Assembly (NCBI GenBank): GCA_017996625.1
Contig: JAGOGO010000001.1
Location: forward strand, 2,336-66,335
Origin: Deltaproteobacteria bacterium
GTDB lineage: Bacteria; Desulfobacterota; WTBG01; JAGOGO01
Length of the DNA stretch: 64,000 nucleotides
Direction: 5' to 3'
The number at the start of each line of letters is the position of its first letter. The first letter of the stretch is position 1. The position numbers and the translations under genes are program-made. A model generated the notes under the pieces. That model made no database searches. It worked only from the letters and a program-made list of their open reading frames with translations, and was not told where the DNA came from. This document shows, in pieces, positions 3,766 to 43,547 of this stretch.

Positions 3766-3775
3766 CCTGTCGGAT

Positions 3776-3936
3776 AGTGAAAAGTGAAGAGTGAAAAAAG
3801 TTCACCGTTGACCGAAAAACCAAAGGCTGGAGACGATCCCTTGTCGTCGACAAAAAAGATCTAATCCAGTCGGTCAACGGACAACGGTGAACAGTGAACG
3901 TACCCGTCACTTTTCCTTCCTACTCCTTACTGCTTT
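3776..3936. repeat. intergenic palindromic element, family member A (purine arm, inner 14-bp inverted repeat, pyrimidine arm)
   Basis: AGTGAAAAGTGAAGAGTGAAAAAAG, then TTCACCGTTGACCG ... CGGTCAACGG-ACAA-CGGTGAACAGTGAACG, then CACTTTTCCTTCCTACTCCTTACTGCTTT. Sits between the divIVA stop and the DUF167 start. Confidence 0.5.
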
Positions 3937-4299: not shown

Positions 4300-4405
4300 G
4301 AAGTTAAAAGTAAGAAGTAAAGAATATAGCGTAAGAAGTCATCAGACGATGAGCCATTTTCTATCCATTAACTCCTCACTTTTCACTCCTTACTTCTTAC
4401 TGTTA
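4294..4405. repeat. intergenic palindromic element, family member B
   Basis: AGTAAGAAGTTAAAAGTAAGAAGTAAAG ... ACTCCTCACTTTTCACTCCTTACTTCTTACTGTT. AGTAAGAAGTAA pairs with TTACTTCTTACT. Between DUF167 and mutM. Confidence 0.5.
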
Positions 4406-4413
4406 AGTGATTC

Positions 4414-5259
4414 ATGCCCGAGCTTCCAGAAGTCGAAACGATTAAGAGGGACCTAGCACCGCAGGTGGCGGGGAAAACGATTACCGCGGTAGAATTCCCT
4501 CCCGATCCTCGTTGCCGAATCCTGCGACGATTCTGCGCCTCGAAGGCCCTTTTTCAGAAGGAGCTTCAAGGCGTCCAAATCCTAAGTCTGCGGCGACGAG
4601 CAAAGTACCTCGTTTTCGATCTTATTCCAGCCGGCAGTCTGATTATGCATCTCGGCATGTCCGGTCAGATTCTCTTGCGTCCCTCAGGTACACCGCCCGA
4701 TCCTTATGTTCGCGCCATCGTATATCTCGATGATGAACACGAGATCCGGTTTTCCGACCCTCGCAAATTCGGCGAAATTCTCTTTTCACGTCCTCCACAG
4801 TGGAATCCGCCGGTGAATTTGGATTCCTTGGGGCCGGAGCCTTTGGAAGGCGAATGCACCATTTCTTATCTGACTGCAGTCCTAAAAAAATCTCACCGAC
4901 CGATCAAAACAGTTCTTATGGATCAGCAGATCATTGCTGGAATCGGAAACATATATAGCGACGAATCCTTATTTGCGGCGGCACTGCATCCCTGTCGTGA
5001 GGCGTGCTCACTGAGCCGAGAGGAGATTGCCCGGCTTCATCGAGCCCTACGTCATATTCTGCGCAAGGCGATCAAATACCGGGGTACTACTGCGCGAGAC
5101 CAGCGTTATCGCGACGGTCTCGGCAGGGCCGGAGAATTTCAGAACAGTCTTCAGGTATACCAGCGTTTCGGCCAGAAATGCCGAAGATGTAGTGCACAAA
5201 TAACAGCTCTTCGGATTGCCGGAAGAACCGCCTCGTTCTGCCCAAGGTGCCAGAAGTAG
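4414..5259 (+). CDS. mutM: formamidopyrimidine-DNA glycosylase (Fpg/MutM)
   Basis: N-terminal MPELPEVETIKRDL (catalytic Pro2/Glu3), H2TH region, C-terminal CxxC...CPRCQ zinc finger. Confidence 0.9.
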   Translation: MPELPEVETIKRDLAPQVAGKTITAVEFPPDPRCRILRRFCASKALFQKELQGVQILSLRRRAKYLVFDLIPAGSLIMHLGMSGQILLRPSGTPPDPYVRAIVYLDDEHEIRFSDPRKFGEILFSRPPQWNPPVNLDSLGPEPLEGECTISYLTAVLKKSHRPIKTVLMDQQIIAGIGNIYSDESLFAAALHPCREACSLSREEIARLHRALRHILRKAIKYRGTTARDQRYRDGLGRAGEFQNSLQVYQRFGQKCRRCSAQITALRIAGRTASFCPRCQK

Positions 5260-12172: not shown

Positions 12173-14848
12173 ATGACCCCCATGGTTCGACAGTATGCTG
12201 CTATCAAGCAGCGCTATCCGGATGCGGTTCTCTTTTTTCGCCTCGGCGATTTCTACGAGATGTTTTTCGAAGACGCTGAGAGGGCATCACGGATTCTTGA
12301 TATTGTTCTTACCTCCCGCGAAGGAGGAAATGGGAACCGCATTCCCATGTGCGGCGTTCCCTATCATGCTGCTCAGGGATACATCACTCGCCTCACGAGA
12401 GAAGGACTTAAGGTGGCGATCTGTGAGCAGGTTGAGGATCCTAAGGCCGCTCGCGGTATCGTGAAACGAGAAGTGATTCGCATCATCACACCTGGCACCA
12501 ATATTCTTGATGAAGCTGATGAATCACAGGAAGAAAACTTTATTGTTGGTATGGTTCAAGAGCAGGGGATCGTCGGGCTTGCTCACCTTAATATGGGAAC
12601 CGGAACGTTTCGCGTAACCGAGCTGGGGTCTCGTGAAGATGTGTTGGGAGAGCTGGCACGCATCAAGCCGACCGAATGTGTGATCCCGGAAAAAATGGCC
12701 CAGTCACCCCACCTCCGGCCATTTCTCGATCGAGAACTCAAGGCAGTCGTCAACACCTATGAGCCATGGGTATTTTCTCTTGAGTATGCGGGTCGTGTAA
12801 TTAAGGAGCAGTTTAAAATTGCTTCCATGCAGGGCCTGGGGCTTGATGAGTATCCGATTGGCGCAATCGCCGCTGGCGCTGTGATTCATTACCTCCGGGA
12901 TAATATGCATGTTTCTCTGGACCATGTGCGGCCGCCTGCGATTTACTCCTCCAGCGAATACATGGTGCTCGACCGCAAGACGCTGCGCAATCTGGAGATC
13001 ATCACGACCACCAGCGGTGAAAAGGGAGATACCACGCTGCTAAAGGTGCTGAACCGGACGGTTACCCCGCTCGGTGGCCGACTGCTGCGGCAGTGGATCC
13101 GGCAGCCGCTCATTGCCGCGAATCTTATCAACGATCGGCTTGATGCAGTCGAGGAGTTTTTTCGTGAACGCAGTCTCATGTTCAAGCTGCGGGAAGCACT
13201 ACGTTTCATCCGAGATCTGGAACGAATTCTCGGTCGACTCGGGTGCAATCTTGGATCAGCCCGGGACCTAGTAGCGTTAAAAGACTCTCTCAAGCAGGTG
13301 CCACAGATGTATGAGCTTCTCTCACCCTGTGCGTCTACTCTGTTAGTGTACCAGCGCAGCCACTTGCATCACCTTGATATCCTTACTGAGGCTATTGAGG
13401 CGGCTATTGTGGATACTCCTCCACTTGGAACCAAAGAGGGAGGCATGATTCGGCGAGGATACCATGCGGAACTCGATGAACTCTATCGTATTGCCCATCA
13501 CGGCAAGGAATGGCTGGCTCAACTGCAGCAGCAGGAAGTCACCCGAACGGGCATAAAGTCACTCAAGATCCGCTATAATAAGGTCTTCGGATATTACATT
13601 GAAATCACGAAAGCGAACCTTGGCCAGGTTCCGGATTATTACATTCGGCGGCAGACGCTGGTCAACGCCGAACGTTTTGTCACTCCTGAGCTCAAAGAGT
13701 ACGAAGAACGAATTCTCGGTGCCGAGGAACGATCCTGCCAGATTGAACTGGAAATTTTTGAAGATCTTAGGAGCCGGGTCCTGCAGCAGAGTCGGGAAAT
13801 TCAGGAATTAGCTGAGTCACTTGCCGTAATCGACATTTTGGCAACCTTCGCGTATCTGGCACAGCAGTATCGATATGTTCGACCGACAATTGATGATAGC
13901 TCCGCAATATCCATTACTGGCGGACGACATCCGGTTGTTGAACACGTACTGGAGGAGGGACGATTCGTAGAAAATGACACCTTTGTCAATTGCGATGATC
14001 AGCAGCTGCTGGTCATTACCGGTCCGAACATGGCAGGCAAGTCGACGTACCTGCGGCAAGTTGCATTGCTCGTGCTTATGGCCCAGAGTGGAAGCTTTGT
14101 TCCTGCCGAGGCCGCACGCTTCGGGGTAGTAGACAAGATATTCACTCGCATCGGTGCTTCAGATAACCTCGCGCGAGGAGAAAGCACTTTTATGGTGGAA
14201 ATGATCGAGACCGCGCACATTTTGAACAATGCAACTGCTCGAAGTCTGATAATTCTGGATGAGATCGGGCGAGGGACCTCAACCTTTGACGGAGTGAGTA
14301 TCGCTTGGGCAGTATGCGAACACCTGTGCCGGCAATCGGGTCCGCGGCCGAAAACCCTCTTCGCCACCCATTACCATGAACTAACCGCCTTGGAAGAGAA
14401 CCTGTCAGGAGTGAAAAACTATACGATAATGGTAAAGGAGTACGAAGACGAAGTGGTTTTTATCCGTAAAATCATGCCGGGCAGCGCCGATCGCAGTTAT
14501 GGTATCCATGTTGGGAAAATGGCTGGATTGCCGGCAGAGGTCGTGGTACGGGCCGAGGCCATTCTCCGTGAACTCGAATCCGGGCCGGCAAAGGTTGGGC
14601 TCGTGAAGGTCCGGCAGCTGCTTCCTGATGCTGCGTTCTCATCGGCTTCAGCAGAAGTTTCTCCTGCAGGCGAGCGCAGCATGCAAACAAGAACCAGGCT
14701 GGAGCGCCAGCTGCCCTTTCTCCAGAGCCTTCCGCAGGACCATCCTGTTGTTAGGGAACTGATCGAGCTTGACATAAATGCCTTGACGCCCCTCCAAGCG
14801 CTCAATCAGCTCAACAAGCTGCAGATAATGGCGCAGAAAAAGGAGTGA
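12173..14848 (+). CDS. mutS: DNA mismatch repair protein MutS
   Basis: 891 aa. N-terminal mismatch-binding motif TPMVRQYAAIKQRYPDAVLFFRLGDFYEMFFEDA, Walker A GPNMAGKSTYLRQ, and DEIGRGTSTFDG. Confidence 0.95.
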   Translation: MTPMVRQYAAIKQRYPDAVLFFRLGDFYEMFFEDAERASRILDIVLTSREGGNGNRIPMCGVPYHAAQGYITRLTREGLKVAICEQVEDPKAARGIVKREVIRIITPGTNILDEADESQEENFIVGMVQEQGIVGLAHLNMGTGTFRVTELGSREDVLGELARIKPTECVIPEKMAQSPHLRPFLDRELKAVVNTYEPWVFSLEYAGRVIKEQFKIASMQGLGLDEYPIGAIAAGAVIHYLRDNMHVSLDHVRPPAIYSSSEYMVLDRKTLRNLEIITTTSGEKGDTTLLKVLNRTVTPLGGRLLRQWIRQPLIAANLINDRLDAVEEFFRERSLMFKLREALRFIRDLERILGRLGCNLGSARDLVALKDSLKQVPQMYELLSPCASTLLVYQRSHLHHLDILTEAIEAAIVDTPPLGTKEGGMIRRGYHAELDELYRIAHHGKEWLAQLQQQEVTRTGIKSLKIRYNKVFGYYIEITKANLGQVPDYYIRRQTLVNAERFVTPELKEYEERILGAEERSCQIELEIFEDLRSRVLQQSREIQELAESLAVIDILATFAYLAQQYRYVRPTIDDSSAISITGGRHPVVEHVLEEGRFVENDTFVNCDDQQLLVITGPNMAGKSTYLRQVALLVLMAQSGSFVPAEAARFGVVDKIFTRIGASDNLARGESTFMVEMIETAHILNNATARSLIILDEIGRGTSTFDGVSIAWAVCEHLCRQSGPRPKTLFATHYHELTALEENLSGVKNYTIMVKEYEDEVVFIRKIMPGSADRSYGIHVGKMAGLPAEVVVRAEAILRELESGPAKVGLVKVRQLLPDAAFSSASAEVSPAGERSMQTRTRLERQLPFLQSLPQDHPVVRELIELDINALTPLQALNQLNKLQIMAQKKE

Positions 14849-15062
14849 GAAGTAAGAAGAAGACGCCCTCGTTGCCAGCTCACGCTTATGCGTCATTCGT
14901 GTTGAATCCCTGTTGCGTGACAAACACGCTAGACGTTCGCGGCGGGGACGCCGCTCCCACAAGGCAGTGAAAAGTGAAATGCAAGAAGTACAAAGGCGAG
15001 GGGTGAGTCGTGTCTTCTCGTTCTTACTCCTCACTCTTGACTCCTTACTCCTTACTGTTTCA
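14849..15062. repeat. intergenic palindromic element, family member C (two purine arms, one long pyrimidine arm) in mutS-mutL spacer
   Basis: GAGAAGTAAGAAGAAGACG ... CAGTGAAAAGTGAAATGCAAGAAGTACAAAGG ... CGTGTCTTCTCGTTCTTACTCCTCACTCTTGACTCCTTACTCCTTACTGTTT. Confidence 0.5.
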
Positions 15063-15088
15063 TCGTCCGGGCGAGATAAGGACTTAGT

Positions 15089-16903
15089 ATGGGTACCATC
15101 AAAATTCTATCCGATAGCATTATAAATAAAATTGCCGCCGGCGAGGTGGTGGAGCGTCCGGCATCGGTGGTCAAGGAGCTGATAGAAAACAGCCTTGATG
15201 CCCAGGCAACCGCTCTTATGATTACAGTCAAACATGGCGGCAAAGAGCTTATACGCGTTGCTGATAACGGCTGTGGCATGAGCCGGGAAGATGCTTGTCT
15301 TAGCCTCAAACGGCACGCTACCAGCAAAATTGAATCAGTAGAGGATATTTTCCGGGTTGGCAGCTTCGGATTTCGTGGGGAAGCGTTACCGAGCATCGCT
15401 GCTGTTTCGCGTCTGACGCTTCTCACCCGGGAACAGAGCTCAGCAGCCGGAACTGAGATTGTTGTTGCAGGGGGTGCGGTGGAGTCGGTTCGCGATGCAG
15501 GAACAGCGATAGGTACGGCGGTGGAAGCGCGTGATCTTTTTTTCAATACACCGGCCCGGCAGAAGTTTCTCCGCAGTGAACGCTCCGAGTTTCTGGCTAT
15601 CGCTGACGTAGTGACGACATTCGCAAGCGGTAACCCTGAGGTGTCGTTCAAGCTTGTTCACGATACCCGGGCCACTCTTGATTGTTCAGCAGCGATCAGT
15701 TTAAGAGAGCGTATTGCGTCGCTGCATGGCGAAGAGATTGTGGCCGCCCTGATTCCGGTTGCCGGAGAATCGCAGGAAATCAAGATCTCCGGGTTTGTTA
15801 CCAGTCCCACTGTAAGTCGAGTGAATCGCACCGGGCAGTATCTTTTTATAAATCGTCGGCCTATCAAAAGCCCTGCCCTGGGTTTCGCTCTTCAGCAAGG
15901 GTGTGAAGGCCTGCTTCCGCAAAACCGGCATTGCATGGCTTTTCTTTTTTTTGAGATCGTACCATCGCGAGTTGATGTTAATGTGCATCCAAATAAGACC
16001 GAGGTGCGAGTGGCTAACGAGCGGGAGGTGCATAAGCTCCTTGTGGATACAATTCGTGCTGCGCTTCATTCACAATGGGGTTATCCGGCAGGAAAAGTGG
16101 CTGTTTTGAGTAATACGGTTCCGCTGGCTGCTTCTCGTCTGAAGCATGCGGGTTTTCAGTATAGCACTGTTGAAGACCAAGCCGATCTACCAGCGATTCA
16201 CCAGCCACTGTCTTTAGCATATAGCGGAGAAAAGACGACCCAGCAGCCAGAGAGCGTTTCTCTCCGGAGTGTGCCAGGTGATCGTGAATTGTCGTTTTTA
16301 TTTCCTGGCCGAAAAGGAGAAACGGCAACGCCCGCTGTACTAGGACAGTATCAGGCTTCTTACATCATCGCCGAATATGGCGCAAAGCTCCTGATTGTTG
16401 ATCAGCATGCCGCGCATGAGCGGATTATGTATGAGGACGTCCTTAGCTTGTTTGAAAGCGGACCCAAGACTTCGGAGCGTTTGCTTATTGCCGCGACTAT
16501 TTCGCTTGACTACCGAGAACAGGAAGCACTCGTGGAATATCTTCCGCTTCTCGAACAAATTGGTTTCGGAGTAAACGATCTCGGCCGCAATACTTACAGC
16601 ATTGATGCAGTGCCGGCTCTGTTGAAGAGGGAAGACTCAAGACAGCTGATTCTTGATATCGTCCATCAGGCACTGGAGGGATCCGGCGCGTACGCTGTTG
16701 ACGATCGAAAGAAGGCGTTGGCAGCCGCAATTGCTTGTAAGACCAAATCGTTGAAAGCTTCCTCGCGGTTACAGCCTGAAGCGATGCAGCATCTGGTAGA
16801 GCGCCTCTTTCAGACTCGCCAGCCTTTTTTCTGCCCTCATGGCCGGCCCACCTGTATTACCTTCACTAGAGAGGAATTAGAAAAACGATTTGGACGAAAG
16901 TAG
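15089..16903 (+). CDS. mutL: DNA mismatch repair endonuclease MutL
   Basis: 604 aa. GHKL ATPase N-terminus (AAGEVVERPASVVKELIENSLDA) and the C-terminal DQHAAHERIMYE metal-binding endonuclease motif. Confidence 0.95.
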   Translation: MGTIKILSDSIINKIAAGEVVERPASVVKELIENSLDAQATALMITVKHGGKELIRVADNGCGMSREDACLSLKRHATSKIESVEDIFRVGSFGFRGEALPSIAAVSRLTLLTREQSSAAGTEIVVAGGAVESVRDAGTAIGTAVEARDLFFNTPARQKFLRSERSEFLAIADVVTTFASGNPEVSFKLVHDTRATLDCSAAISLRERIASLHGEEIVAALIPVAGESQEIKISGFVTSPTVSRVNRTGQYLFINRRPIKSPALGFALQQGCEGLLPQNRHCMAFLFFEIVPSRVDVNVHPNKTEVRVANEREVHKLLVDTIRAALHSQWGYPAGKVAVLSNTVPLAASRLKHAGFQYSTVEDQADLPAIHQPLSLAYSGEKTTQQPESVSLRSVPGDRELSFLFPGRKGETATPAVLGQYQASYIIAEYGAKLLIVDQHAAHERIMYEDVLSLFESGPKTSERLLIAATISLDYREQEALVEYLPLLEQIGFGVNDLGRNTYSIDAVPALLKREDSRQLILDIVHQALEGSGAYAVDDRKKALAAAIACKTKSLKASSRLQPEAMQHLVERLFQTRQPFFCPHGRPTCITFTREELEKRFGRK

Positions 16904-21677: not shown

Positions 21678-22499
21678 ACACGATACACTCCGCTTCTCAT
21701 TCAAATGCATGACAGAATGTCTCACGCTTGTATGATGCTCTCTGTTAATTTGAACAACACAGAAGCCTGAAAGAGTGTTATTCAGTTTTGCCGCTCTTCT
21801 TGAATGCCTCACAGTTTCTTTCAAGAACGAAACGTAGTGTCAAGCCTTATGCAAGATTAGAAAAATATTAGCTAAATTTGAGATCTTAGCGTTGTGCTAA
21901 GGTGGACGGAAATACTCGACTTGATCTGGAGGAAGATAAAGGCTGACCGGAATGTTTTACTCTGGCGTGATTGGATCCAAAAAAGGGGTGAGACGGGTAT
22001 ATCACATTGTTTTTGTGGTGAGTTTAAGACCCAAGGGGAGTATGGAGTGAATGATATACCCGTCGTACCCTAATAAAGAGGAGGAGATTATCCGCATCCA
22101 TCAGCAATTGCAAATATTGTACCAGCTTCAGCATGGTACGTATTCAACAAGAAGGACTTGTTCATTTTTGGCTGTTCGTTTCTAATTGAAGAGAAAATCG
22201 AGACATATTGTCTCAGCAAGGCAAGTTAGGGTGTAAATGTGTCACATAAATCCTCGGTGCTATTCATTCGACAACAAAGTTTTGCTTGAAGAAAGCATGC
22301 TTGTGTGAAAATATAGCAAAAAAAATTTGCACATTCATAAAATACTGTTAAGGTGTTGGTAAGCAATACGTTCTGTTTGCAGATATCGCCTTGTCCTGGA
22401 GAAAATTTCAGTAACAAATGTATTGCTGTTAGAAGTGGTAAGAATATTTATAAGACGTATTGTGGCTTTGGCCGGGAGAGAAAGAAGGAAAGATGACGC

Positions 22500-30461: not shown

Positions 30462-30722
30462 AAACAACCCTCTTAACCTAAAATTAAGAGAAAAAAGAAG
30501 GAAAAACCAGCTTTCAGAAGCTTGCGTCCGCTGATTGGATGTGAAAATTTTGTTCATAACTCACCTAAGAGATTAAAAGGTCGTTTTTTTTCTAAAGGGT
30601 CCTATCCTCCTTGGCTGATGAGAAAATGCCGTGAATTGCTGATAAATAGTGTTAGTTTTTGCAAGCTTATATGTTCGGTAGCGCTTTTTACATTCCTTCG
30701 GCAAAACGATCAAAAACAGCGG

Positions 30723-30753
30723 TTGACAGCATACCTTGGTCCTCGTTTATTAT
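30723..30753 (+). promoter_or_regulatory. sigma70-like promoter upstream of dnaA
   Basis: TTGACA, 17 bp spacer, TTTATT (TATTAT offset by 2), about 55 nt upstream of the dnaA ATG. AGGAGAG ribosome-binding site at -10 from the ATG. Confidence 0.5.
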
Positions 30754-30806
30754 CCTTCTAAGCCGAGAGAAACCCACCACCACATTTTAGAGCAGGAAGG
30801 AGAGAG

Positions 30807-32153
30807 ATGGAGCCACAACTCTTGAGGCAGTTTGAAGATCTTGTCAAAAAGAATATCGGCGTAACATCTTATAATCGTTGGTTTTCCCAAATCAAGCCCG
30901 AACGGATTGATGACCGAAAAGCAGTTCTTGCATGCCCTAATACGTTTGTTCTCGATTGGGTCAAACTTCATTACTATCCAATCATTGTGAAGACAATCCG
31001 AGAGTTGTTGGGAGAAACGGTGGCGGTGGAGCTCCTGGTGAAGGAATGTCCTTACGATGAAAACGGTGCAAGGATCAACACCCAGCAGCAGCGCTCACTT
31101 CCGGGAACAGAAAACTATTTGAATTGCCTGCCATTTGTAAATCAGGGATATTCATTCAGCAATTTCGTTGTCGGCCCGAGTAATCACCTGGCCTATGCTT
31201 CGGCCCTGGCGATAACCGAACCCGATTTCAGGCGTTACAATCCCTTTTTCATATACTCATCCGAGGGGCTCGGGAAGACTCATCTTTCAAGCGCCATGGG
31301 AGTGAAGATTTTCAATCACAATGCTGATGTCAAAATCTTCTATACAACCGCCGAGTGGTTCACCCATGAAATGATCCAGGCCCTACGAAAAAATCGGATC
31401 CTGGAATTCAAAGAAAGGTATCGGAAACACTGTGACGTTCTTTTTATCGAGGATATCCAATTTCTTCAGAAGAAAGAAAAAACCCAGGAAGAAATCTTTT
31501 ACACGCTGAATGCGCTGATTCAGATGGGAAAGCAGGTAGTGCTTACTGCGAATGCCAATCCCCGGGAGCTCAGCGACTTGAAATCTAATCTGAAATCGCA
31601 AATGGGAAGCGGGCTGGTAGTAGATATTCGGCAGCCCGATTACGAAACCAGGCGCGAAATTATTACCAAGAAATGTACTGAGGAGAAGGTTGAAATCTCA
31701 GATGATGCTGCCGATTTTATCGCCCGATCGATAACAAGCAACATTCGGGACTTGAAGAGTGCCTTGATCCATGTAATTGCCACTTCATCTCTGCTTGGCC
31801 AAGATATCACCATGGATGTGGTAAAGGAGAGTTTGAAGGGTTTTATAGAAAAGGCCAAAGTGATCGGTATCAATGAAATAAACAGCTTTATCGCCCAATA
31901 CTTCAAGATTTCGTTGGATCAGCTTCGCTCCAAATCCCGCAGTAGGACTGTTACCTATCCCCGGCAGATGTCATATTATTTTTGTCGGAAATATACCAAC
32001 AGTACATTGGCGGAAATCGGGAAGTGCTTCAACCGGAATCACTCATCAGTGGTACGGGCTCTGAATAAGTTCGAATCGAGCCTGCGCACTAATCGCAGTA
32101 TCCGTGACGCTGTCGACTTTTTGACCGAGAAGTTCGAAAAGAGCTATTTGTAG
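30807..32153 (+). CDS. dnaA: chromosomal replication initiator protein DnaA
   Basis: 448 aa. Domain I, AAA+ Walker A (SSEGLGKTHL), and Walker B (FIEDIQF) motifs. C-terminal DnaA-box-binding helix-turn-helix region (RSRTVTYPRQMSYYFCRKYTNSTLAEIGKCFNRNHSSV). Confidence 0.95.
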   Translation: MEPQLLRQFEDLVKKNIGVTSYNRWFSQIKPERIDDRKAVLACPNTFVLDWVKLHYYPIIVKTIRELLGETVAVELLVKECPYDENGARINTQQQRSLPGTENYLNCLPFVNQGYSFSNFVVGPSNHLAYASALAITEPDFRRYNPFFIYSSEGLGKTHLSSAMGVKIFNHNADVKIFYTTAEWFTHEMIQALRKNRILEFKERYRKHCDVLFIEDIQFLQKKEKTQEEIFYTLNALIQMGKQVVLTANANPRELSDLKSNLKSQMGSGLVVDIRQPDYETRREIITKKCTEEKVEISDDAADFIARSITSNIRDLKSALIHVIATSSLLGQDITMDVVKESLKGFIEKAKVIGINEINSFIAQYFKISLDQLRSKSRSRTVTYPRQMSYYFCRKYTNSTLAEIGKCFNRNHSSVVRALNKFESSLRTNRSIRDAVDFLTEKFEKSYL

Positions 32154-32159
32154 GTGGCT

Positions 32160-32255
32160 TGGAGAATGGAGAAAGGGAAAAATGGAGAATAGTGAATTTT
32201 TCCTTTGTTGTCCTTAAGCCCAGAACTATTTAACCATTTTCCCATTCTGCCACTT
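32160..32255. repeat. intergenic palindromic element, family member D, immediately after dnaA stop
   Basis: GGAGAATGGAGAAAGGGAAAAATGGAGAATAGTGAA ... CCATTTTCCCATTCTGCCAC. Same GGAGAATGG / CCATTCTCC arms as member E in inverse order. Confidence 0.5.
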
Positions 32256-32317
32256 AAGGAATATTCCACCTTTTCAGTACCCCAGCTTTTCTTTTACCGC
32301 GTGAAACCGCAGCAAGT

Positions 32318-33831: not shown

Positions 33832-33910
33832 CCCGCGAAGCGGGTTACCCGTCAGCTCTTCTGGCCCGCGAAGCGGGTTACCCGTCAGCTCTTCTGGCCC
33901 GCGAAGCGGG
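33832..33910. repeat. 33-bp tandem repeat, 2.4 copies, each with a CCCGC-GAA-GCGGG hairpin
   Basis: CCCGCGAAGCGGGTTACCCGTCAGCTCTTCTGG x2, then CCCGCGAAGCGGG. Lies in the rarA / iorA divergent intergenic region. Confidence 0.8.
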
Positions 33911-36168: not shown

Positions 36169-37182
36169 ATGACGTATGATCAAACAGATAAAGATTTCAT
36201 ACCGGGCTATCAGCGCCTGCGGCGATCCGGGGAGCTTGCCGAACGGATTCGCCAGGCGTACGAGCGGCTTTCCTGCTGCACACTCTGTCCCCGACAGTGC
36301 CGGGTTAATCGGTATCACGGTGAGCGAGGCTATTGCGGAGCTGGTGACTGTGTGAAAATAGCACGCTTCCTCCCTCACTTTGGTGAGGAGCCGCCCTTGA
36401 TCGGAATGCAAGGGGCCGGAACCATCTTCTTCTCGCACTGTAGTCTGAAATGCTGTTACTGTCAGAATTATCAGATTAGTCATCAGAGCTTGGGGCAGGA
36501 AACAACGGTCGTTGCTCTTGCACGGATCATGTGTGAGCTTCAGGAACAAGGGTGCGCCAATATTGATCTGGTAACTCCGACTCAGTATCTTCCTTTTATT
36601 TTGGATGCGGTTCGCCTCGCGGCAGAGAATGGCCTGATTATCCCTCTGGTATATAACAGCAGCGGGTATGAATCCCTGGAGACACTGCATCTTCTCGACG
36701 ACATCGTGGATATTTTTCTTCCTGATTGGAAATACAGCACCTCAGATCTGGCTGAGGAGTTCTCTCATGCTCCGGACTATCCTTCGGTATGTGAGGAGGC
36801 GGTGCGGGAAATGTACTATCAGGTGGGAGATCTTGTTGAAGACCCAAACGGACTAGCCCGCAGGGGGCTGATTGTTCGACATCTTGTCCTTCCCGGTTCT
36901 CTTGATAACACTGAACGTATCCTCAGGCGGATTGCTGAGCTGTTTCCAGACAGCATCCGAGTGAGTCTCATGTCGCAGTATGTGCCTTGCTATCAGAGTG
37001 AATTGCACCCGGGTCTCGATCGTCCTCTCACTGAAAGCGAGTACGGACGAGCCCGGGAAGTTCTGGAGGAGTGTGGTCTGGCTGAATGCTGGATCCAGGA
37101 GTTAGAAAGCCGTTGCCTTTTTTTGCCTGATTTTACCAAAGAGGATCCCTTTGGGGATACAAGTTCACGGGTCGAAGGTTAG
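36169..37182 (+). CDS. radical SAM protein, PflX-like (pyruvate formate-lyase activase homolog, COG1313 type)
   Basis: N-terminal auxiliary CxLCPRQC...GERGYCG motif followed by the radical SAM CSLKCCYCQN cluster. Confidence 0.7.
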   Translation: MTYDQTDKDFIPGYQRLRRSGELAERIRQAYERLSCCTLCPRQCRVNRYHGERGYCGAGDCVKIARFLPHFGEEPPLIGMQGAGTIFFSHCSLKCCYCQNYQISHQSLGQETTVVALARIMCELQEQGCANIDLVTPTQYLPFILDAVRLAAENGLIIPLVYNSSGYESLETLHLLDDIVDIFLPDWKYSTSDLAEEFSHAPDYPSVCEEAVREMYYQVGDLVEDPNGLARRGLIVRHLVLPGSLDNTERILRRIAELFPDSIRVSLMSQYVPCYQSELHPGLDRPLTESEYGRAREVLEECGLAECWIQELESRCLFLPDFTKEDPFGDTSSRVEG

Positions 37183-37189
37183 CAGGAAC

Positions 37190-37435
37190 TCGGAGCGGGA
37201 AAGATACTGGAATAATGGATGACCTCTTGAAGTGAGCGAGGATCGCGGAAGAAAATCCTAAATGCGAATCTCTCAGCACTAAACAAATTCCAAATCCAAA
37301 GGCTCTAAGGTCCTAAACCAAACGAATTCTCCCATTCTCCATTTTTCCAATCTCCCACCATTCCGCTCCTCAGTCGGTGAACGGTGAACGGACAACGGTG
37401 AACGCGTAAGCCTCTAAGCGGTGAACACGCGGCAG
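37190..37435. repeat. intergenic palindromic element, family member E, plus 4x GGTGAAC direct-repeat array
   Basis: GGAGCGGGAAAGATACTGGAATAATGGATG ... CCCATTCTCCATTTTTCCAATCTCCCACCATTCCGCTCC, then CGGTGAACGGTGAACGGACAACGGTGAACGCGTAAGCCTCTAAGCGGTGAACACGC. The 17-mer AACGGACAACGGTGAAC is identical to 3876-3892. Confidence 0.55.
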
Positions 37436-37593
37436 ATAACCGCAGTATCACGGCCGTGGAGAAACCTCTTGACTTGGTTCGGAAATGAGATAGAGTTTCT
37501 GTTTGATCCTGAGAACGGGTATCGCCCATTCATCAAAGCAGCGTCTGTGTGTCAAGCGGGTGAGCGAAATCAAAGAGAATCACACTGCGTTCC

Positions 37594-38265
37594 ATGGTAC
37601 AAAAGAAACCCAGAGGAGCTTTGAAGCTTGCATATAGCAAGAAGTCTGCGCAAGGGGATCGGTTTCGGAGATCACGATCTCGCATTCTTGCACTGCTTGC
37701 TTTCGTTGCTCTGGCTGCGATTACGGCACTTTCATTGTATATTGTTAAGAACCCCATCTGGGTGGCAGGCTCTGGTTGTACCACAACGTATATTCCCTCG
37801 TCGATTCATTCTCCGGAGGGTTCCTCGATACAACTAAAAAGTGCCAGTGTAACGCTTTTCTTTTCCGATCCAGACAGTGGTCTGTTAATCCGTGAAAAGC
37901 GCTCAATTGTCTGGAATCCTGCAGATCTGAAGAGTCAGGTTCGAGCTATTCTTTATGACCTGCAGAAAGGATCGAAACAGAACCTGCTCAATCCGATGCC
38001 GGCTCTTGCACAAGTACGCGATATCTCTTTCCAGGGCGATATGGCGGTCCTGGATTTCAGCAGAGAATTACGGGATCATCATCCCGGAGGAAGTCTTGCT
38101 GAAATGCATACCATTTATGCTATTGTCAATTCTGTGACCTTGAACATCGCATCCGTCAAAAAAGTTCAGATCCTCATTGAAGGCAAGACTGTGGAAACAT
38201 TGAAAGGGCACATTGACTGCCGTTCACCATTGGCTCCAAACTTTTCCCTTATCAAAGCGAGTTAG
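37594..38265 (+). CDS. GerMN domain-containing (sporulation/germination-like) membrane-anchored protein
   Basis: Basic N-terminus plus TM helix ([21 protein letters not shown]), then a region matching the GerMN fold ([18 protein letters not shown]...VRAILYDL...[33 protein letters not shown]...[11 protein letters not shown]). Confidence 0.5.
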
Positions 38266-38267
38266 CA

Positions 38268-40307
38268 GTGGCCAAGAAGAGCCGTTTGGACAGAATCCGC
38301 AACATTGGTATCATCGCCCATATCGATGCCGGCAAGACTACGGTGACCGAGCGAATTCTTTTCTATACCGGAAGGATTCATAAGATGGGCGAGGTACATG
38401 ATGGACAGGCAGCTATGGACTACCTCATTCAGGAGCAGGAACGAGGCATCACCATCACTTCAGCAGCGACCACGTGCGTGTGGCAAGGCACGGACATCCA
38501 TCTGATTGATACACCCGGGCACGTGGACTTCACGATTGAGGTGGAGCGGTCTCTGAGAGTTCTGGATGGCGCGGTCGTCGTGTTCTGCGCAGTGGGAGGC
38601 GTGGAACCTCAATCGGAGACGGTATGGCACCAGGCAGACAGGTATCGGGTTCCGCGGCTGGCATTCATCAACAAGATGGACCGTATTGGATCGGATTTTC
38701 GCGGCGTCATCCAGCAGATGAAAGACAAGTTGGGTGCCCGGCCGCTCGTTCTTCAGCTGCCGCTGGGATCTGAATCAGACTTCAAAGGAGTTATTGACCT
38801 TATTGCCAATCAGGCGCTGGTTTGGGATGACGATACGCTTGGTGTGTCTTTTACTTCCATGCCGATACCAGAAGCGTATCGTGATGAGGCAGCTGAGTAT
38901 CGCGACCGTCTTATGGAGACACTCGCCGAAGGTGATGACCTTCTTTTAGAAAAGTACCTTTCCGGGGCAGAGATTACTGCCGATGAGGCTCACCAGGCAG
39001 TGCGAAGCCTCACCCTGAGTTATGCGGTAACACCGGTTCTTTGTGGATCAGCATTGCGGAATAAGGGTATTCAACCAGTGCTGGATGCTGTTGTCCGATA
39101 TCTTCCGTCACCGCAGGATGTGCCCGCAGTGATGGGCATTAATCCCCGAACCAATGACAAGGAGGAGAGACTCAGCAGCGATGATGCTCCGCTAACTGCA
39201 TTCGCCTTTAAGGTTCTGACCGATGAGGAAAAGCGAAAGCTAGTGTTTCTACGTATTTATTCTGGCGTGATCCAGGCTGAAACTGCTGTCTACAATGCTT
39301 CCAAGAACAAAACCGAGCGACTGGCCCGCCTGTTTCGAATGTATTCTAATAAGCGGGAGCGATTACCTGAGGCTCGCGCGGGAGACATTGTCGCTGCCGT
39401 GGGCCTCAAGGATACAATTACCGGTGATACCCTCTGTGATCCTCAACATCCAATTCTTCTCGAGCCCCTTGATTCTTACCGCCCGGTGATGTCTGTCGCT
39501 ATAGAGCCGAAGACCCGCAGTGACATGGAAAAGCTGGAGGGCGCGTTAAACAAGCTGGTGGATGAAGATCCGACGTTTACCGTCAAGCATGATGAAGACT
39601 CTGATCAGACTATTATTTCAGGCATGGGAGAGCTGCATCTGGATGTGCTGGTTACCAGGCTGCTGCAAGATTTCAATATCAACGTTAACGTGGGCAAGCC
39701 CCAGGTCGTGTATCGTGAGACGATCACGAGATCTGTTGAACACGAAGCAACCTTTGACCGGGAAATCGGGGGAACGCGCAACTACGGTAACGTACGGGTT
39801 AGGCTTGAGGCTCTGAAACGCGGAAGCGGCGTTGAATATGCAAATACGCTGGCAGAAGGTAGTCTCCCTGCGAATATCCTCAGTGCCATCGAAATGGGAA
39901 TCCATGAAAGGCTTCTATCCGGCGTGGCGGCTGGTTATCCGGTTGTCGATGTGAAGATCAGTCTGATCAATGCCCTGCTCCAGGATAGTGCCTCTACTGA
40001 ACTAGCCTATAAGATTGCCGCATCAATGGCGGTAAAAGAAGGATGCGAAAAAGCCGGCCCGGTTCTCCTTGAGCCGATTATGGCCCTTGATGTCGTAGTA
40101 CCGGAGGAATTCATGGGCGAGGTTATCGGTGATCTCAATGCGCGGCGAGGCAGACTTGGCAATATTACACCTAAAGGAAAGGTATCGGTGATCAAGGCAA
40201 TGGTACCGCTCAAAGAAACCTTCGGTTATTCCACGAGCCTGCGATCAGCCAGCCAGGGCCGCGGCACATTTACCATGCAGTTTTCTCATTACGACCAGGC
40301 GGGATAG
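38268..40307 (+). CDS. elongation factor G paralog (EF-G2-like translational GTPase)
   Basis: 679 aa, GTG start 3 nt after the upstream stop. G domain [21 protein letters not shown], and EF-G domains II-V. Shorter and more divergent than canonical FusA, and not in a str operon (rpsL-rpsG-fusA-tuf). Confidence 0.85.
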
Positions 40308-40505: not shown

Positions 40506-41792
40506 TCACTCCACCAGCGCCTGTTTCAATACTTCTGCAAGGTGCTTCACTGCTTGCTGCTTATTCATGGCATGAAAACCATCCTGAAACTGCATCAGAC
40601 ATCCCATGCACGAGGTAACCACCGTATCTATACCTGCCTCTTCAATCGATCGTACTCGCCTGCGGAAGATCTGCAAGGATAGATCATAATGACTCACGTC
40701 AAAGCTGCCTCCGGAGCCACAGCAAAGGTTTTCCTGGCCGGTCTCAACGAATTCCGCTCCTCGTATTGCACGGAGCAGCTCTCGCGGTTGCATGATGATG
40801 CCCTGCGCCCGCCGCAGGTGGCAGGGATCATGGAAAGTAAAACGAACCTGTTCTTCGGCCTGAAAATTCTTCATCGCAGGCAAACCCGCGTCCACAAGAA
40901 GTTCGGATAGATCCTTTACTCGCTGAGAAAACGCTAAGGCCTTCTGCCTTGAACTTTTGTCCTCAAACAATGCAGGATACTGCTTGAGGTGAGCACTGCA
41001 GGAAGAGCAGAATGCAACTATCGGGACAGATTCTTCTCCTGCGAAGGCGTCGATTGTTCGTCTGGCGATCTGGCGGGCGGCTTCGATCTCCCCTGCTCCT
41101 GATGCCATTAGTCCACAGCAGCTTTGTTCCGGAGGGATTACAACCGGAATACCGAGGTGTTCCAGCAGAGCCAGGGCAGCTTCGGCAATACCGGGAAGTA
41201 TATAGTTTGCAACACAGCCGATAAAGAGCAGCGCTCCCGGGTGATGTGGTTGAGATCGTTTTCGCCGGACATCGAGAAAAGACTGCTGTGCCAGAGCTGG
41301 AATAATCCGCGCCGATTTTTCTCTTCCTCTGGGCAGGCGATAGTAGAGGCCGCTTTCAAGCGGAACCTTTTTCAAAAGCAGCGGCTCAAGTGCTTTTCCC
41401 GCTTGATAGAGCCGGTCAAGCCGCTGCGGAAAGGGCAGAATGCGTGATAGAAAGGTTTTATACGCTAAAGCTGAATTCCTTCGAGAGGTGAATATGGTGC
41501 GGGCCTTGCGGATAAGCTCGTATGCTGGCACCATATTCGGACAGATTTCCGTGCAGGCGCCACAAAGGAGGCAGCATGATAAGATATCGTTTATGTTTGC
41601 TTCTGATAACGACCCGGAGGCGGCAGCCTCAATGAGAGCGATCTTGCCCCGGGCGGTTTGCGGTTCGCGTCCGGTTTCTCGATAAATCGGACAGACGCTC
41701 AGGCAACGACCACACTTGACGCACGCGGCGGCTTCGCTGGCCAAGCTATCGACGGATTCGATAGTGAGGTTGTGATTGGGTTTCCCTTCCAT
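40506..41792 (-). CDS. Fe-S oxidoreductase, GlcF/HdrD-like (two 4Fe-4S ferredoxin motifs plus CCG domains)
   Basis: CVKCGRCLSVCPIY and CCLLCGACTEICP ferredoxin motifs. C-terminal cysteine-rich CCG domains (CCGSGG). Confidence 0.8.
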   Translation of the reverse strand: MEGKPNHNLTIESVDSLASEAAACVKCGRCLSVCPIYRETGREPQTARGKIALIEAAASGSLSEANINDILSCCLLCGACTEICPNMVPAYELIRKARTIFTSRRNSALAYKTFLSRILPFPQRLDRLYQAGKALEPLLLKKVPLESGLYYRLPRGREKSARIIPALAQQSFLDVRRKRSQPHHPGALLFIGCVANYILPGIAEAALALLEHLGIPVVIPPEQSCCGLMASGAGEIEAARQIARRTIDAFAGEESVPIVAFCSSCSAHLKQYPALFEDKSSRQKALAFSQRVKDLSELLVDAGLPAMKNFQAEEQVRFTFHDPCHLRRAQGIIMQPRELLRAIRGAEFVETGQENLCCGSGGSFDVSHYDLSLQIFRRRVRSIEEAGIDTVVTSCMGCLMQFQDGFHAMNKQQAVKHLAEVLKQALVE

Positions 41793-41798
41793 TAGCGG

Positions 41799-43196
41799 TC
41801 AGTATTCTTCAGCCGGATTTCCGTAAAAGATTTTCCCGGGATTGAGAATGTCATTGGGATCAAAAGCTCGTTTGATTCTCTTCATTAAAGCAATTTCAGT
41901 ATCGGTAAGCTCCATCCCAAGATAGGCTGCTTTCGTGATCCCGATGCCGTGCTCGCCGGAAATGGTTCCTCCCAATTCAATGACTGTTTGAAAAAGCTCT
42001 TTTACTACTCTTTCAGCTTTCTCTGGTTCGCCTTTTCGCGATTTGTCATACATGACATTCACATGCAGATTCCCGTCACCGGCATGGCCAAAGCTGATAA
42101 CCGGGAGCTGAAATTTCTTTTTGATCTGTTCCAGCCGGTGGAACAAGTCCGGGATTCGACTGCGCGGAACCACGATATCCTCATTGATCTTAGTTAGCTT
42201 GAGCTGCATCAGCGCTGGAGAGATGGCCTGCCGAATCTGCCAGAGCGTTTCGGCCTCCTGATCCGTTTGCGCTTGTTTAATGTAAAACGCTTCCCGGTTT
42301 CTGCACAATTCTTCTATCCTGTCAGTCTGTTTTTTCATCGTCAGAGGATCGCCATCCAGTTCGATGAGCAGGACGGCCTCAGTACCGGCTGGCAGGTTCA
42401 ATGGTCGATACGTGCTGACGCAACGGATTGAAGCCTGGTCGATCAGCTCAAGTTTTGCGGGGATAATACCGCTTCGAATGATATCGGATACCGTATGCGA
42501 ACAGGCTTCGATGCTGCTGAAAGCGGCTATGAGCGTACGCGTGGCTTCCGGCTTGGGGATGAGGCGAACGTATATTTTTGTAATAATTCCCAGAGTCCCT
42601 TCAGATCCTACAATAAGACGGGTGATGTCATATCCTACCACCCCTTTCATGGTACGCACACCGGTGGTGATTATTTCACCGGTCGGCAAGACCACTTCCA
42701 GGCCAGTTACATAATCGCGAGTGACTCCGTATTTCAGGCCGTGTGGACCGCCGGCATTCTCAGCTGCGTTACCTCCCAAGCTCGAAAAGGCCAGACTTGA
42801 AGGATCCGGGGGATAAAAAAGTCCACGTTTTTTTACTTCATTCTGAAAATCCCCACAGAGCACACCTGGTTCAACGATCGCGGTGAGATTGTCGGCGTCA
42901 ATTTCCACAATGCGGTTCAAGCGAGTAGTCACCAGGACAACGCCACTGAGGATGGCCAAGGCGCCACCGGTAAATCCGCTTCCTGCGCCCCGGGGAATCA
43001 CGGCAAACTGCATCCTGTTTGCAAGCCGGAGAATCTCGGCTATCTCTTGAGCGGTCCCGGGAAACACAACTGCATCGGGAAGAAATTTCCGGTTTACTGC
43101 GTCATAGGAATAGCAGACCAGAGATTCGGAATCAGTGAGGACGTTTTCTTTGCCCACAATTTTCATGAGCAGATAGATGGCGTTCTTCTTTAGCAA
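41799..43196 (-). CDS. FAD-linked oxidase, GlcD / D-lactate dehydrogenase family
   Basis: 465 aa. FAD-binding PCMH domain (VIPRGAGSGFTGGA) and C-terminal FAD-oxidase domain. Directly upstream of, and co-directional with, the GlcF-like gene. Confidence 0.85.
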   Translation of the reverse strand: MLKKNAIYLLMKIVGKENVLTDSESLVCYSYDAVNRKFLPDAVVFPGTAQEIAEILRLANRMQFAVIPRGAGSGFTGGALAILSGVVLVTTRLNRIVEIDADNLTAIVEPGVLCGDFQNEVKKRGLFYPPDPSSLAFSSLGGNAAENAGGPHGLKYGVTRDYVTGLEVVLPTGEIITTGVRTMKGVVGYDITRLIVGSEGTLGIITKIYVRLIPKPEATRTLIAAFSSIEACSHTVSDIIRSGIIPAKLELIDQASIRCVSTYRPLNLPAGTEAVLLIELDGDPLTMKKQTDRIEELCRNREAFYIKQAQTDQEAETLWQIRQAISPALMQLKLTKINEDIVVPRSRIPDLFHRLEQIKKKFQLPVISFGHAGDGNLHVNVMYDKSRKGEPEKAERVVKELFQTVIELGGTISGEHGIGITKAAYLGMELTDTEIALMKRIKRAFDPNDILNPGKIFYGNPAEEY

Positions 43197-43397
43197 CGAT
43201 GATGCTCCCTTCGGGTAGTACTACTGGTAAGTGACACTGTTTGTCCAGGGCAGCGTCGATCCGCCATACGGATTAACGAGAAGCCGACTCGGTGTTGTCG
43301 CCAGAGTGCGAGAATCGCGTTGTTGTGCCGCGAACGTGCGTTCCATGTATGCCAAAAGATAATAGCATTACGCTGGAAAGGATGAAAGGTCAAGGAT

Positions 43398-43547
43398 CTA
43401 GGGACTGTATGATAATGCCCTAATGGGTTAAAAATAGATCGAGGGAATGCACCAATTGGTGATTATCAGCATGACATTCCTTGGACTATTTCTCCTCGGC
43501 TTTATCAGAATGTGCCTTCATGACCTATTGTCATACAGTCCCTAGAC
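43398..43547. repeat. pair of 19-bp inverted repeats 112 bp apart (CTAGGGACTGTATGATAAT / ATTGTCATACAGTCCCTAG)
   Basis: 18/19 match in inverted orientation. The internal segment carries TTATCAG / CATGAC sub-repeats. Lies in the divergent region between the glcD-like gene and the membrane-protein gene. Confidence 0.6.

Follow-up and report, generated by a model that had tools for sequence, protein, structure and literature searches.

Intergenic repeats built of tandem heptamers have for decades been known from cyanobacteria, Xanthomonas, Beggiatoaceae and Geobacter, with no agreed origin or function. The repeat described here is an array of GGTGAAC-type heptamers at about 37.3 kb of a 64,000-nt stretch of contig JAGOGO010000001.1; this whole stretch is called the window below. 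The array lies just upstream of a GerMN gene (37594-38265) and the gene of an EF-G paralogue, EF-G2 (38268-40307), which is where the original prediction had placed it. The source organism is an uncultured member of the Thermodesulfobacteriota that has been assembled repeatedly from anaerobic digesters. We consider it probable, with appreciable room for other explanations, that the array is a right-hand arm that stands alone and belongs to a family of small mosaic repeats with tandem 7-nt arms, derived from mobile elements.

Among the described systems, the "global regulator sites" of Geobacter metallireducens come from a related lineage (formerly Deltaproteobacteria) and likewise consist of four to five tandem units of 7-8 nt. 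They are paired arrays of four GTTGCTYN octamers or five MTYCTGA heptamers, and elements with four GGACCGG heptamers were found as well (Aklujkar et al. 2009, PMC2700814). Most of these arrays form opposite-strand pairs at a variable distance, dozens of intergenic sites are occupied, insertion sequences are associated with them, and they were read, without a test, as sites for IHF/HU or for a regulator (PMC2700814). Their unit sequences differ from those of the window, and neither target-site duplications nor the structure of a miniature inverted-repeat transposable element (MITE) was reported there.

The GGGAATC repeats of Xanthomonas and the GGGGA(C/T)T repeats of Nostoc resemble the present arrays in being heterogeneous tandem heptamers with fixed and variable positions (Rehm et al. 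2015, PMC4692102). They are intergenic and near gene ends, mostly with four units and with some convergent opposite-strand pairs, and their length and sequence vary between related species (PMC4692102). The GGNNAAC unit, however, is not G-quadruplex-forming and occurs in another host phylum; beyond what is known of those repeats, the arrays here serve as terminal inverted repeats of a MITE with duplications, and the polarity of their pairs is absolute. The short tandemly repeated repetitive (STRR) sequences of cyanobacteria and the TAACTGA repeats of Beggiatoaceae are also abundant intergenic tandem heptamers, present in 2-6 copies, often just upstream of start codons, and the same heptamer is found in distant lineages (PMC4679880; 10.1101/2022.06.06.494920). 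TAACTGA repeats are nearly all direct (one indirect among 169 sets) with a bias to 5' leaders, whereas GGNNAAC arrays often form inverted pairs and have no gene-direction bias. No relevant paper was found in the literature for the exact GGTGAAC/GGACAAC array strings. New here are the GGNNAAC unit family in uncultured Thermodesulfobacteriota, the link between heptamer arrays and a MITE, and the rules of polarity and length.

The locus is made up of the following parts, where L numbers denote the contigs or loci that were compared with the window:

37376 to 37403, + strand: four contiguous heptamers, GGTGAACGGTGAACGGACAACGGTGAAC (GGTGAAC GGTGAAC GGACAAC GGTGAAC), an "R arm" of the (GGNNAAC)n type and the core of the finding.
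37420 to 37426, + strand: a lone extra GGTGAAC, out of register with the core array, within a block near the promoter that the closest relative (L130) has conserved.
37327 to 37369, + strand: a pyrimidine-rich array of period 7/8 (TTCTCCC ATTCTCC ATTTTTCC AATCTCCC ACCATTCC GCTCC), directly 5' of the GGTGAAC array, with a lag-8 segment at 37321-37358.
37313 to 37405, + strand: a composite repeat of ~93 nt, CTAAACCAAACGAA ... GGTGAACGC, which includes the array and recurs at a non-homologous locus, L097.
37469 to 37496, + strand: a sigma-70-like promoter of the GerMN/EF-G2 pair, TTGACT-16-TAGAGT, outside the repeat and a conserved feature of this spacer.

GGTGAAC begins on the + strand at 37376, 37383, 37397 and 37420, and the four copies that had been predicted are thus all present (37376-37426). 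Their start-to-start distances are 7, 14 and 23, which corrects the first of the previously given spacings (8, 14 and 23 bp). The segment of lag-7 self-similarity at the core array extends over 37371-37406. The window holds 15 GGTGAAC in total (6.85 +/- 2.4 expected), and as six of these are in two arrays, the remaining nine are at background level. At least three GGTGAAC within 60 nt were found in none of 200 dinucleotide shuffles of the window.

The array belongs to a family whose members are scattered along gene boundaries, both here and in many other genomes from the environment. Exact matches to the 21-mer GGTSAACGGACAACGGTGAAC number at least 85 in public metagenome contigs from ~40 datasets, which range from 40 to 70% in GC and have unrelated flanks; by our own estimate, a single chance match needs roughly 10^12 bases. 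Since the contigs of the window itself are absent from the matches, 85 is a lower bound. The 21-mer has no match in 2.9 million viral contigs, and a phage origin of the family was rejected on this ground. The dispersed non-coding copies amount to 75 distinct anchored arrays with unrelated flanks, composed of the units GGTGAAC (171), GGACAAC (92), GGTCAAC (21) and GGATAAC (15), so that five positions of the heptamer are fixed and two are variable. The commonest length is four units (28 bp), both in the anchored arrays (39 of 75) and in the unanchored arrays of the same loci (35 of 73), where lengths of two to eight units were counted 17, 12, 35, 3, 3, 1 and 2 times. This distribution is non-geometric, and free slippage would not yield it.

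The arms of the family also obey a rule of polarity. In each of the 23 anchored cases with an inverted partner, and in all 38 pairs of opposite type within 300 nt (38:0), it is the GTTNNCC arm that lies 5' of the GGNNAAC arm. The arrangement is identical when read on either strand; therefore, the asymmetry is real. Such strict polarity is what terminal inverted repeats would give. The arrays are intergenic in 70 of the 75 cases (~93%), at a median of ~16 nt from a start or stop codon, and they abut both the starts and the ends of genes. Orientation relative to the adjacent gene was tested for bias, and none was significant (23 vs 19).

At least one subfamily is a non-autonomous transposable element, with arrays as terminal inverted repeats and with 8-bp target-site duplications. 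It is represented by a 233-bp non-coding element in two contigs from different metagenomes (L051 and L056), the copies of which are 98.3% identical and have unrelated flanks. The element starts with GTATCCGTTCACCGTTAT and ends with CGGTGAACGGTGAACGGACAACGGTGAACGGTTAC, and these termini are the heptamer arrays. Perfect 8-bp direct duplications surround it, GTGTGGAG in L051 and CTTATTGT in L056, which differ between the two copies; judged by this duplication signature, the element is a MITE. The right end of the MITE is identical to positions 37374-37404 of the window at 31 of 31 bases. Shorter versions of 141 nt (L052, with a 6/8 flank match) and ~95 nt (L116) were also found. The non-coding nature, the terminal inverted repeats, the 8-bp duplications and the unrelated flanks are those of MITEs in general; unlike in the usual MITEs, the terminal repeats are themselves tandem heptamer arrays, and the copies in the window have neither the GTAWCC unit nor a duplication. 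The GTA(A/T)C termini and the 8-bp duplication resemble those of an IS66-family element, ISDge4, whose termini read GTAACT... and whose direct repeat is 8 bp long (PMC12898284); this resemblance serves as a lead only.

The family is also reminiscent of the repetitive extragenic palindromic (REP) sequences of Proteobacteria, with their bacterial interspersed mosaic elements (BIME) and the REP doublets called REPIN, which are short intergenic palindromic units, mosaic or nested, at gene boundaries. However, REPs are mobilised by REP-associated tyrosine transposases (RAYT, of the Y1 type) without target-site duplications, and they are single palindromes rather than tandem heptamers. No RAYT gene was seen next to the arrays, no Y1 transposase gene lies beside the arrays of the window, and the Y1_Tnp gene of L135 is not associated with arrays. 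Membership of the REP/BIME class was rejected in view of this and of the 8-bp duplications around the L051/L056 element.

The 37.3-kb locus shares more than its heptamers with other loci. L097 matches the window over 37350-37405 (56 nt, 98%) and 37313-37345 (33 nt, 94%) with unrelated flanks, and L070 and L108 match it partially. A layout in which an array of the CCATTTTTCC type is followed by the GGTGAAC array is common to L058, L059, L062, L070 and L097. In L058, L059 and L062 it is complete and nested, in the order GTTCACC array, TGGAAAA array, loop, TTTTCCA array, GGTGAAC array. The locus at 37.3 kb resembles such a nested layout after erosion. Two further features belong to the locus:

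37192 to 37222, + strand: a purine-rich tract, GGAGCGGGAAAGATACTGGAATAATGGATGA, the predicted inverted partner of the pyrimidine-rich array, with weak pairing in both the minimum-free-energy and the centroid folds.
37163 to 37168, + strand: a single GTTCAC within the last codons of the radical-SAM open reading frame (ORF), which pairs with GTGAAC at 37398-37403 in the folds.

The latter is perhaps what survives of an eroded left (GTTNNCC) arm. The region 37150-37412, folded as RNA and as DNA, has no extra stability over shuffles (z -0.1 to +0.8), and a hairpin at the 37.3-kb array was rejected, as the folds of both strands are no more stable than shuffles. A CTCTAAG pair at 37303 and 37412, flanking 37310-37410, was considered as a target-site duplication and rejected on two counts: L097 shares only 37313-37405, with different flanks, and L130 keeps the pyrimidine-rich array.

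The second copy in the window, at 3.8 kb, has both arms:

3800 to 3813, + strand: left arm, GTTCACC GTTGACC, which pairs with 3872-3892 in a long hairpin.
3872 to 3899, + strand: right arm, GGTCAAC GGACAAC GGTGAAC AGTGAAC, which holds the shared 17-mer.
3776 to 3797, + strand: outer purine-rich array, AGTGAAA AGTGAAG AGTGAAA, the partner of which is a pyrimidine-rich array at 3905-3933.

The two arms (3800-3813 and 3872-3899) are arranged as terminal inverted repeats would be, and the GTTCACC/GGTGAAC module is nested inside an AGTGAAA/TCACTTT array pair. The intergenic region 3766-3936 folds at -59.1 kcal/mol compared with -37.1 in shuffles (z = -5.7). The 17-mer AACGGACAACGGTGAAC is, as predicted, exact at 3876-3892 and at 37387-37403. 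This identity alone is weak evidence, as a dispersed exact 17-mer of some kind turns up in 21 of 200 shuffles. The match extends, with one 7-nt unit inserted or deleted, to 25 of 26 bases between CAGTCGGTCAACGGACAACGGTGAAC (3867-3892) and CAGTCGGT GAACGGT GAACGGACAACGGTGAAC (37371-37403), so that the two copies differ by one substitution and one 7-nt unit. They are not part of a longer ordinary duplication, as their flanks are unrelated. A shared origin in a mobile or recombining element, one of the options in the original prediction, gains support from the GGNNAAC arrays at both loci, the at least 85 dispersed contigs and the MITE with its duplications. As to orthologues of the 3.8-kb locus, the relatives found via Fpg carry other genes upstream.

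Related genomes tell how old the 37.3-kb array may be. The closest GerMN proteins among GTDB representative genomes are 39-44% identical. In L130, L131 and L132, where GerMN is 73%, 52% and 51% identical, the order radical-SAM, GerMN, EF-G2, or at least the region upstream of GerMN, is kept. A promoter-like block CTTGACTT..GATAGAGTTTC (TTGACTT-N16-GATAGAGTTTC, window 37469-37496) is invariant in L130 and L131. The tandem GGTGAAC array, in contrast, is absent from the orthologous spacer in all three, and L131 and L132 have no arrays in the GerMN spacer at all. L130 retains the pyrimidine-rich array and a promoter-proximal RGTGAAC, its AGTGAAC aligning with the GGTGAAC at 37420; where the window has CAGTC-(GGTGAAC GGTGAAC GGACAAC GGTGAAC)-GCGTAAGCCTCTAAGC, it has a CCCGCGAAGCGCGGG hairpin. 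As the array is absent in relatives and the promoter is conserved, the array is a recent lineage-specific addition and not a conserved operator.

Heptamer arrays are not confined to the two GGTGAAC loci. A self-similarity scan of the window found lag 7, and more weakly lag 8, as the sole enriched period, and all segments were intergenic. The 7.8 kb of intergenic DNA contain six lag-7 segments, compared with 0.04 in shuffles, of which none in 100 has as many; the 56 kb of coding DNA contain none. The window is a piece of core chromosome that carries valS, mutS, mutL, dnaA and the radical-SAM, GerMN and EF-G paralogue genes. Besides GGTGAAC, its arrays use the units AGTGAAA, AGTAAGA, CTTACTC, GGAGAAT and CCATTTT, and further period-7 arrays with GAGCAAA, CTTCAGT and CTTGAAT units lie in the 8.5 kb upstream (L041), so that ~72 kb of this genome were surveyed. 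In the metagenome contigs that match the 21-mer, 248 distinct lag-7 arrays were counted over 568 kb, and the other unit families of the window are among them. Most window arrays are inverted arm pairs that are more stable than shuffles; besides 3766-3936, four have z of -1.9 to -2.3, and these include:

4300 to 4406, + strand: inverted pair of heptamer arrays, AGTAAGA type and CTTACTT type, upstream of fpg (z -2.3).
14966 to 15068, + strand: inverted pair between mutS and mutL, AGTGAAA type and CTTACTC type (z -2.0).
32160 to 32256, + strand: inverted pair of GGAGAAT/TGGAGAA-type and CCATTTTCC-type arrays, downstream of dnaA (z -2.1).

Taken together with the MITE, these observations lead to the following model. 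Family members would have (GTTNNCC)n as the left arm and (GGNNAAC)n as the right arm, typically of four units or 28 bp. Copies, including those of the window, would have spread by transposition with a transposase supplied in trans, which the GTAWCC termini and the 8-bp duplication suggest to be IS66-like; a full-length insertion sequence that ends in GTAWCCGTTCACC... and has 8-bp duplications would then be expected to be IS66-like. Later, slippage of units, substitution and the nesting of copies in one another would make the copies diverge, and slippage plus substitution would explain the difference of one unit and one substitution between the two window copies. Where both arms are present, as at 3.8 kb, a transcript could form a long hairpin, a plausible RNase III site or stability element. 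Any effect of the solo array on the GerMN/EF-G2 promoter is probably incidental.

Several results weigh against this model. In the 37.3-kb copy, a clear left arm, a GTAWCC terminus and a convincing target-site duplication are all lacking, and at the 3.8-kb copy a target-site duplication was sought and none was found, nor is there a terminal GTAWCC unit. In a systematic search for duplications around 24 paired arrays, only the L051/L056 family scored (1 of 24), with 0.8 expected by chance. An autonomous element with the same termini did not turn up either: in the loci compared, no two paired arrays have a segment of transposase size between them. All contigs of this organism are 99.98-100% identical, and with strains so alike, polymorphism in the presence of an array or in its number of units is not observable. 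In L133, where Fpg is 69% identical, an inverted array pair of the same family lies upstream of fpg as it does at 4300-4406 of the window; the retention of this architecture hints at selection or concerted evolution at some loci. Lastly, the fixed length of four units and the exact conservation over a diverse GC content could reflect the binding of a conserved host protein.

The binding of a host protein is the main rival to a mobile-element origin. The arrays would then be genome-wide sites in duplex DNA for a protein that polymerises in a 7-bp register, with a global architectural or regulatory role, and the MITE would merely carry them; a ribbon-helix-helix protein like the omega repressor, or a nucleoid protein of the IHF/HU type, would be candidates. 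The omega repressor of pSM19035 binds contiguous WATCACW heptads with one ribbon-helix-helix dimer per unit, and prefers direct and converging heptads over diverging ones; its operators are plasmid-borne and occur at few promoters beside the omega gene. The likeness to the present arrays would be limited to the contiguous 7-bp layout (compare WATCACW with GTTCACC) and the existence of an orientation rule, whereas these arrays are chromosomal, occupy very many loci and have no ribbon-helix-helix gene identified next to them. We think that this reading is unlikely, although several observations fit it. Contiguous units with five fixed and two variable positions, the peak at four units and the strict pair polarity all fit, and indifference to the direction of transcription suits the recognition of duplex DNA. 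The complementarity of the two arms, unit by unit, is 44 of 77 compared with 42.3 +/- 2.3 from shared composition, no better than that of arms paired across loci. It was dropped as evidence for a selected hairpin, and the arms behave as independent arrays of oriented sites, not as a maintained palindrome. The authors of the G. metallireducens study proposed just such a protein for their paired arrays (PMC2700814). On the other side, one genome holds many unrelated families (GGTGAAC, AGTGAAA, AGTAAGA, GAGCAAA, CTTCAGT, CTTGAAT, GGAGAAT), so that either many proteins or a single, very permissive one would be required. The relatives' orthologous spacer does not have the array, no candidate binding protein was identified, and the target-site duplications show that some copies arrive by transposition.

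A broader form of the mobile-element model, which is speculative and which we hold to be about as unlikely as the host protein, is that these arrays belong to an undescribed, widespread superfamily of heptamer-array elements in anaerobes. Its members would have fixed 28-bp arms, absolute polarity and modular nesting, and would sometimes carry as cargo a gene for a PF05635 protein (23S rRNA intervening-sequence protein); a dedicated protein would recognise the arms, or RNase III would cleave them in transcripts.

In the syntenic relative L131, an ORF for a PF05635 "23S rRNA IVS protein", a four-helix bundle, lies in a ~480-nt insertion (14811-15299) flanked by the inverted heptamer arrays GTCAGTGGTCAGTGGTCCGT and ACGGACAACGGACCACTGACCACGGAC. 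The insertion parts a CCG/Fer4 gene from a FAD-oxidase gene, which are adjacent in the window (41792-41799) and in L132. Its layout is that of a 23S rRNA intervening sequence, yet the site is intergenic. L013 has a similar ORF between heptamer arrays.

Action at the level of RNA was considered next, namely that paired arrays are hairpins that terminate, stabilise or are processed by RNase III, and that solo arrays in leaders are sites for translational regulators. Such a role is plausible for the paired copies, for which the folds of the window arrays (z = -5.7 and four others at -1.9 to -2.3) may be taken as an indication, and implausible for the solo 37.3-kb array; as an account of the latter it is improbable. 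In the metagenome contigs, many arrays stop 5-35 nt short of a start codon, and translational control was proposed by MacGregor 2015 for the TAACTGA repeats of Beggiatoaceae (PMC4679880). The terminal stem of 23S rRNA intervening sequences, which is cut by RNase III, measures 28 bp, equal to four heptamers (PMC4990558). The 37.3-kb array, however, has no inverted partner and no excess structure on either strand (37365-37470, z +0.66 and +0.41), and it lies upstream of the conserved promoter and is thus outside the leader of that mRNA. Solo arrays face either way and are equally near to stop codons. Rfam had no match at the gathering score in the whole window and none at E <= 1 in 37100-37650, and a known structured RNA family was rejected accordingly.

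The original prediction had suggested that the GGTGAAC copies are iterated sites for a response regulator or an iteron set, which would here control the GerMN/EF-G2 pair specifically. It is true that the array ends 43-66 nt upstream of the promoter-like -35, where activators often bind, and that the GGTGAAC-like copy at 37420 is conserved in the closest relative. Nevertheless, this suggestion has failed, and we give it very little credence. The units are contiguous at 7 bp instead of the 10-11 bp phasing of OmpR/NarL-type regulators or the 20-22 bp of iterons, the tandem array is missing in L130, L131 and L132 despite the conserved promoter, and identical arrays adjoin dozens of unrelated genes on unrelated contigs in either orientation. 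As for an origin, no rep gene was found in the window, its DnaA boxes are unclustered and at chance level, and its GC skew has no switch; an oriC or iterons were rejected on these results.

The dnaA gene itself lies in the window at 30807-32153 (region 30462-32317), yet with no evident origin around it.

Neutral heptamer microsatellites made by polymerase slippage, with a coincidental 17-mer, are just as hard to credit: heptamers are over-represented in many bacterial genomes, for which Mrazek 2007, as cited in PMC4692102, offers a polymerase footprint, exact dispersed 17-mers occur in 10% of shuffles and a difference of exactly one unit is typical of slippage, but slippage alone amplifies arbitrary local heptamers and cannot explain how one 21-mer came to be in at least 85 unrelated contigs, nor a mode of four units, 38:0 polarity or target-site duplications. 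Slippage is contradicted as the sole explanation and stays in the transposition model as the source of changes in unit number.

Some other observations were made along the way. Intergenic heptamer arrays, some of them inverted pairs, are also carried by unrelated metagenome-assembled genomes (Poribacteria and unclassified bacteria) that were fetched via GerMN homology:

L015, 2060 to 2125 and 10712 to 10755; L020, 10584 to 10630; L023, 8476 to 8543; L010, 18517 to 18559: heptamer arrays with the units CGTAAAA/CGTAATG, GTTTCAC, CTTGAAT and AATCTAA.

The heptamer-array phenomenon is therefore broader than one phylum. About 4 kb upstream of window position 1, at ~4540-4580, L041 and L042 represent near-identical strains that differ in the genes preceding groESL: one has SSB and an acyltransferase, the other CbiMQO. 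A heptamer array marks the junction, and in L042 a MITE-like terminus, GATGAACGGTTAC, lies exactly at the breakpoint. In the window, the divergent spacer between an MgsA-type AAA gene and a POR gene contains a perfect 33-nt tandem duplication (33832-33897, CCCGCGAAGCGGGTTACCCGTCAGCTCTTCTGG twice, plus a partial third copy) that is related to the CCCGCGAAGCGCGGG hairpin of L130. A 20-nt inverted repeat, TCTAGGGACTGTATGATAAT / ATTGTCATACAGTCCCTAGA, at 43397-43416 and 43527-43546 (95% complementary, 110 nt apart) sits in a 435-nt divergent intergenic region. Another inverted repeat, of 19 nt (GGGTGAGACGGGTATATCA / TGATATACCCGTCGTACCC), at 21986-22004 and 22052-22070 lies in an unusually long AT-rich intergenic region (21678-22499, 822 nt) with no Rfam match.

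For the intergenic heptamer repeats as a class, the target-site duplications provide concrete evidence that heptamer arrays can be the terminal repeats of transposable elements. Functional models for them must account for the mode of four units, the 38:0 polarity of the arms and the lack of bias relative to genes. In genome annotation, these arrays should not be taken for gene-specific operators. If the superfamily does exist, intergenic heptamer repeats, MITEs and rRNA intervening sequences would be one kind of selfish element.

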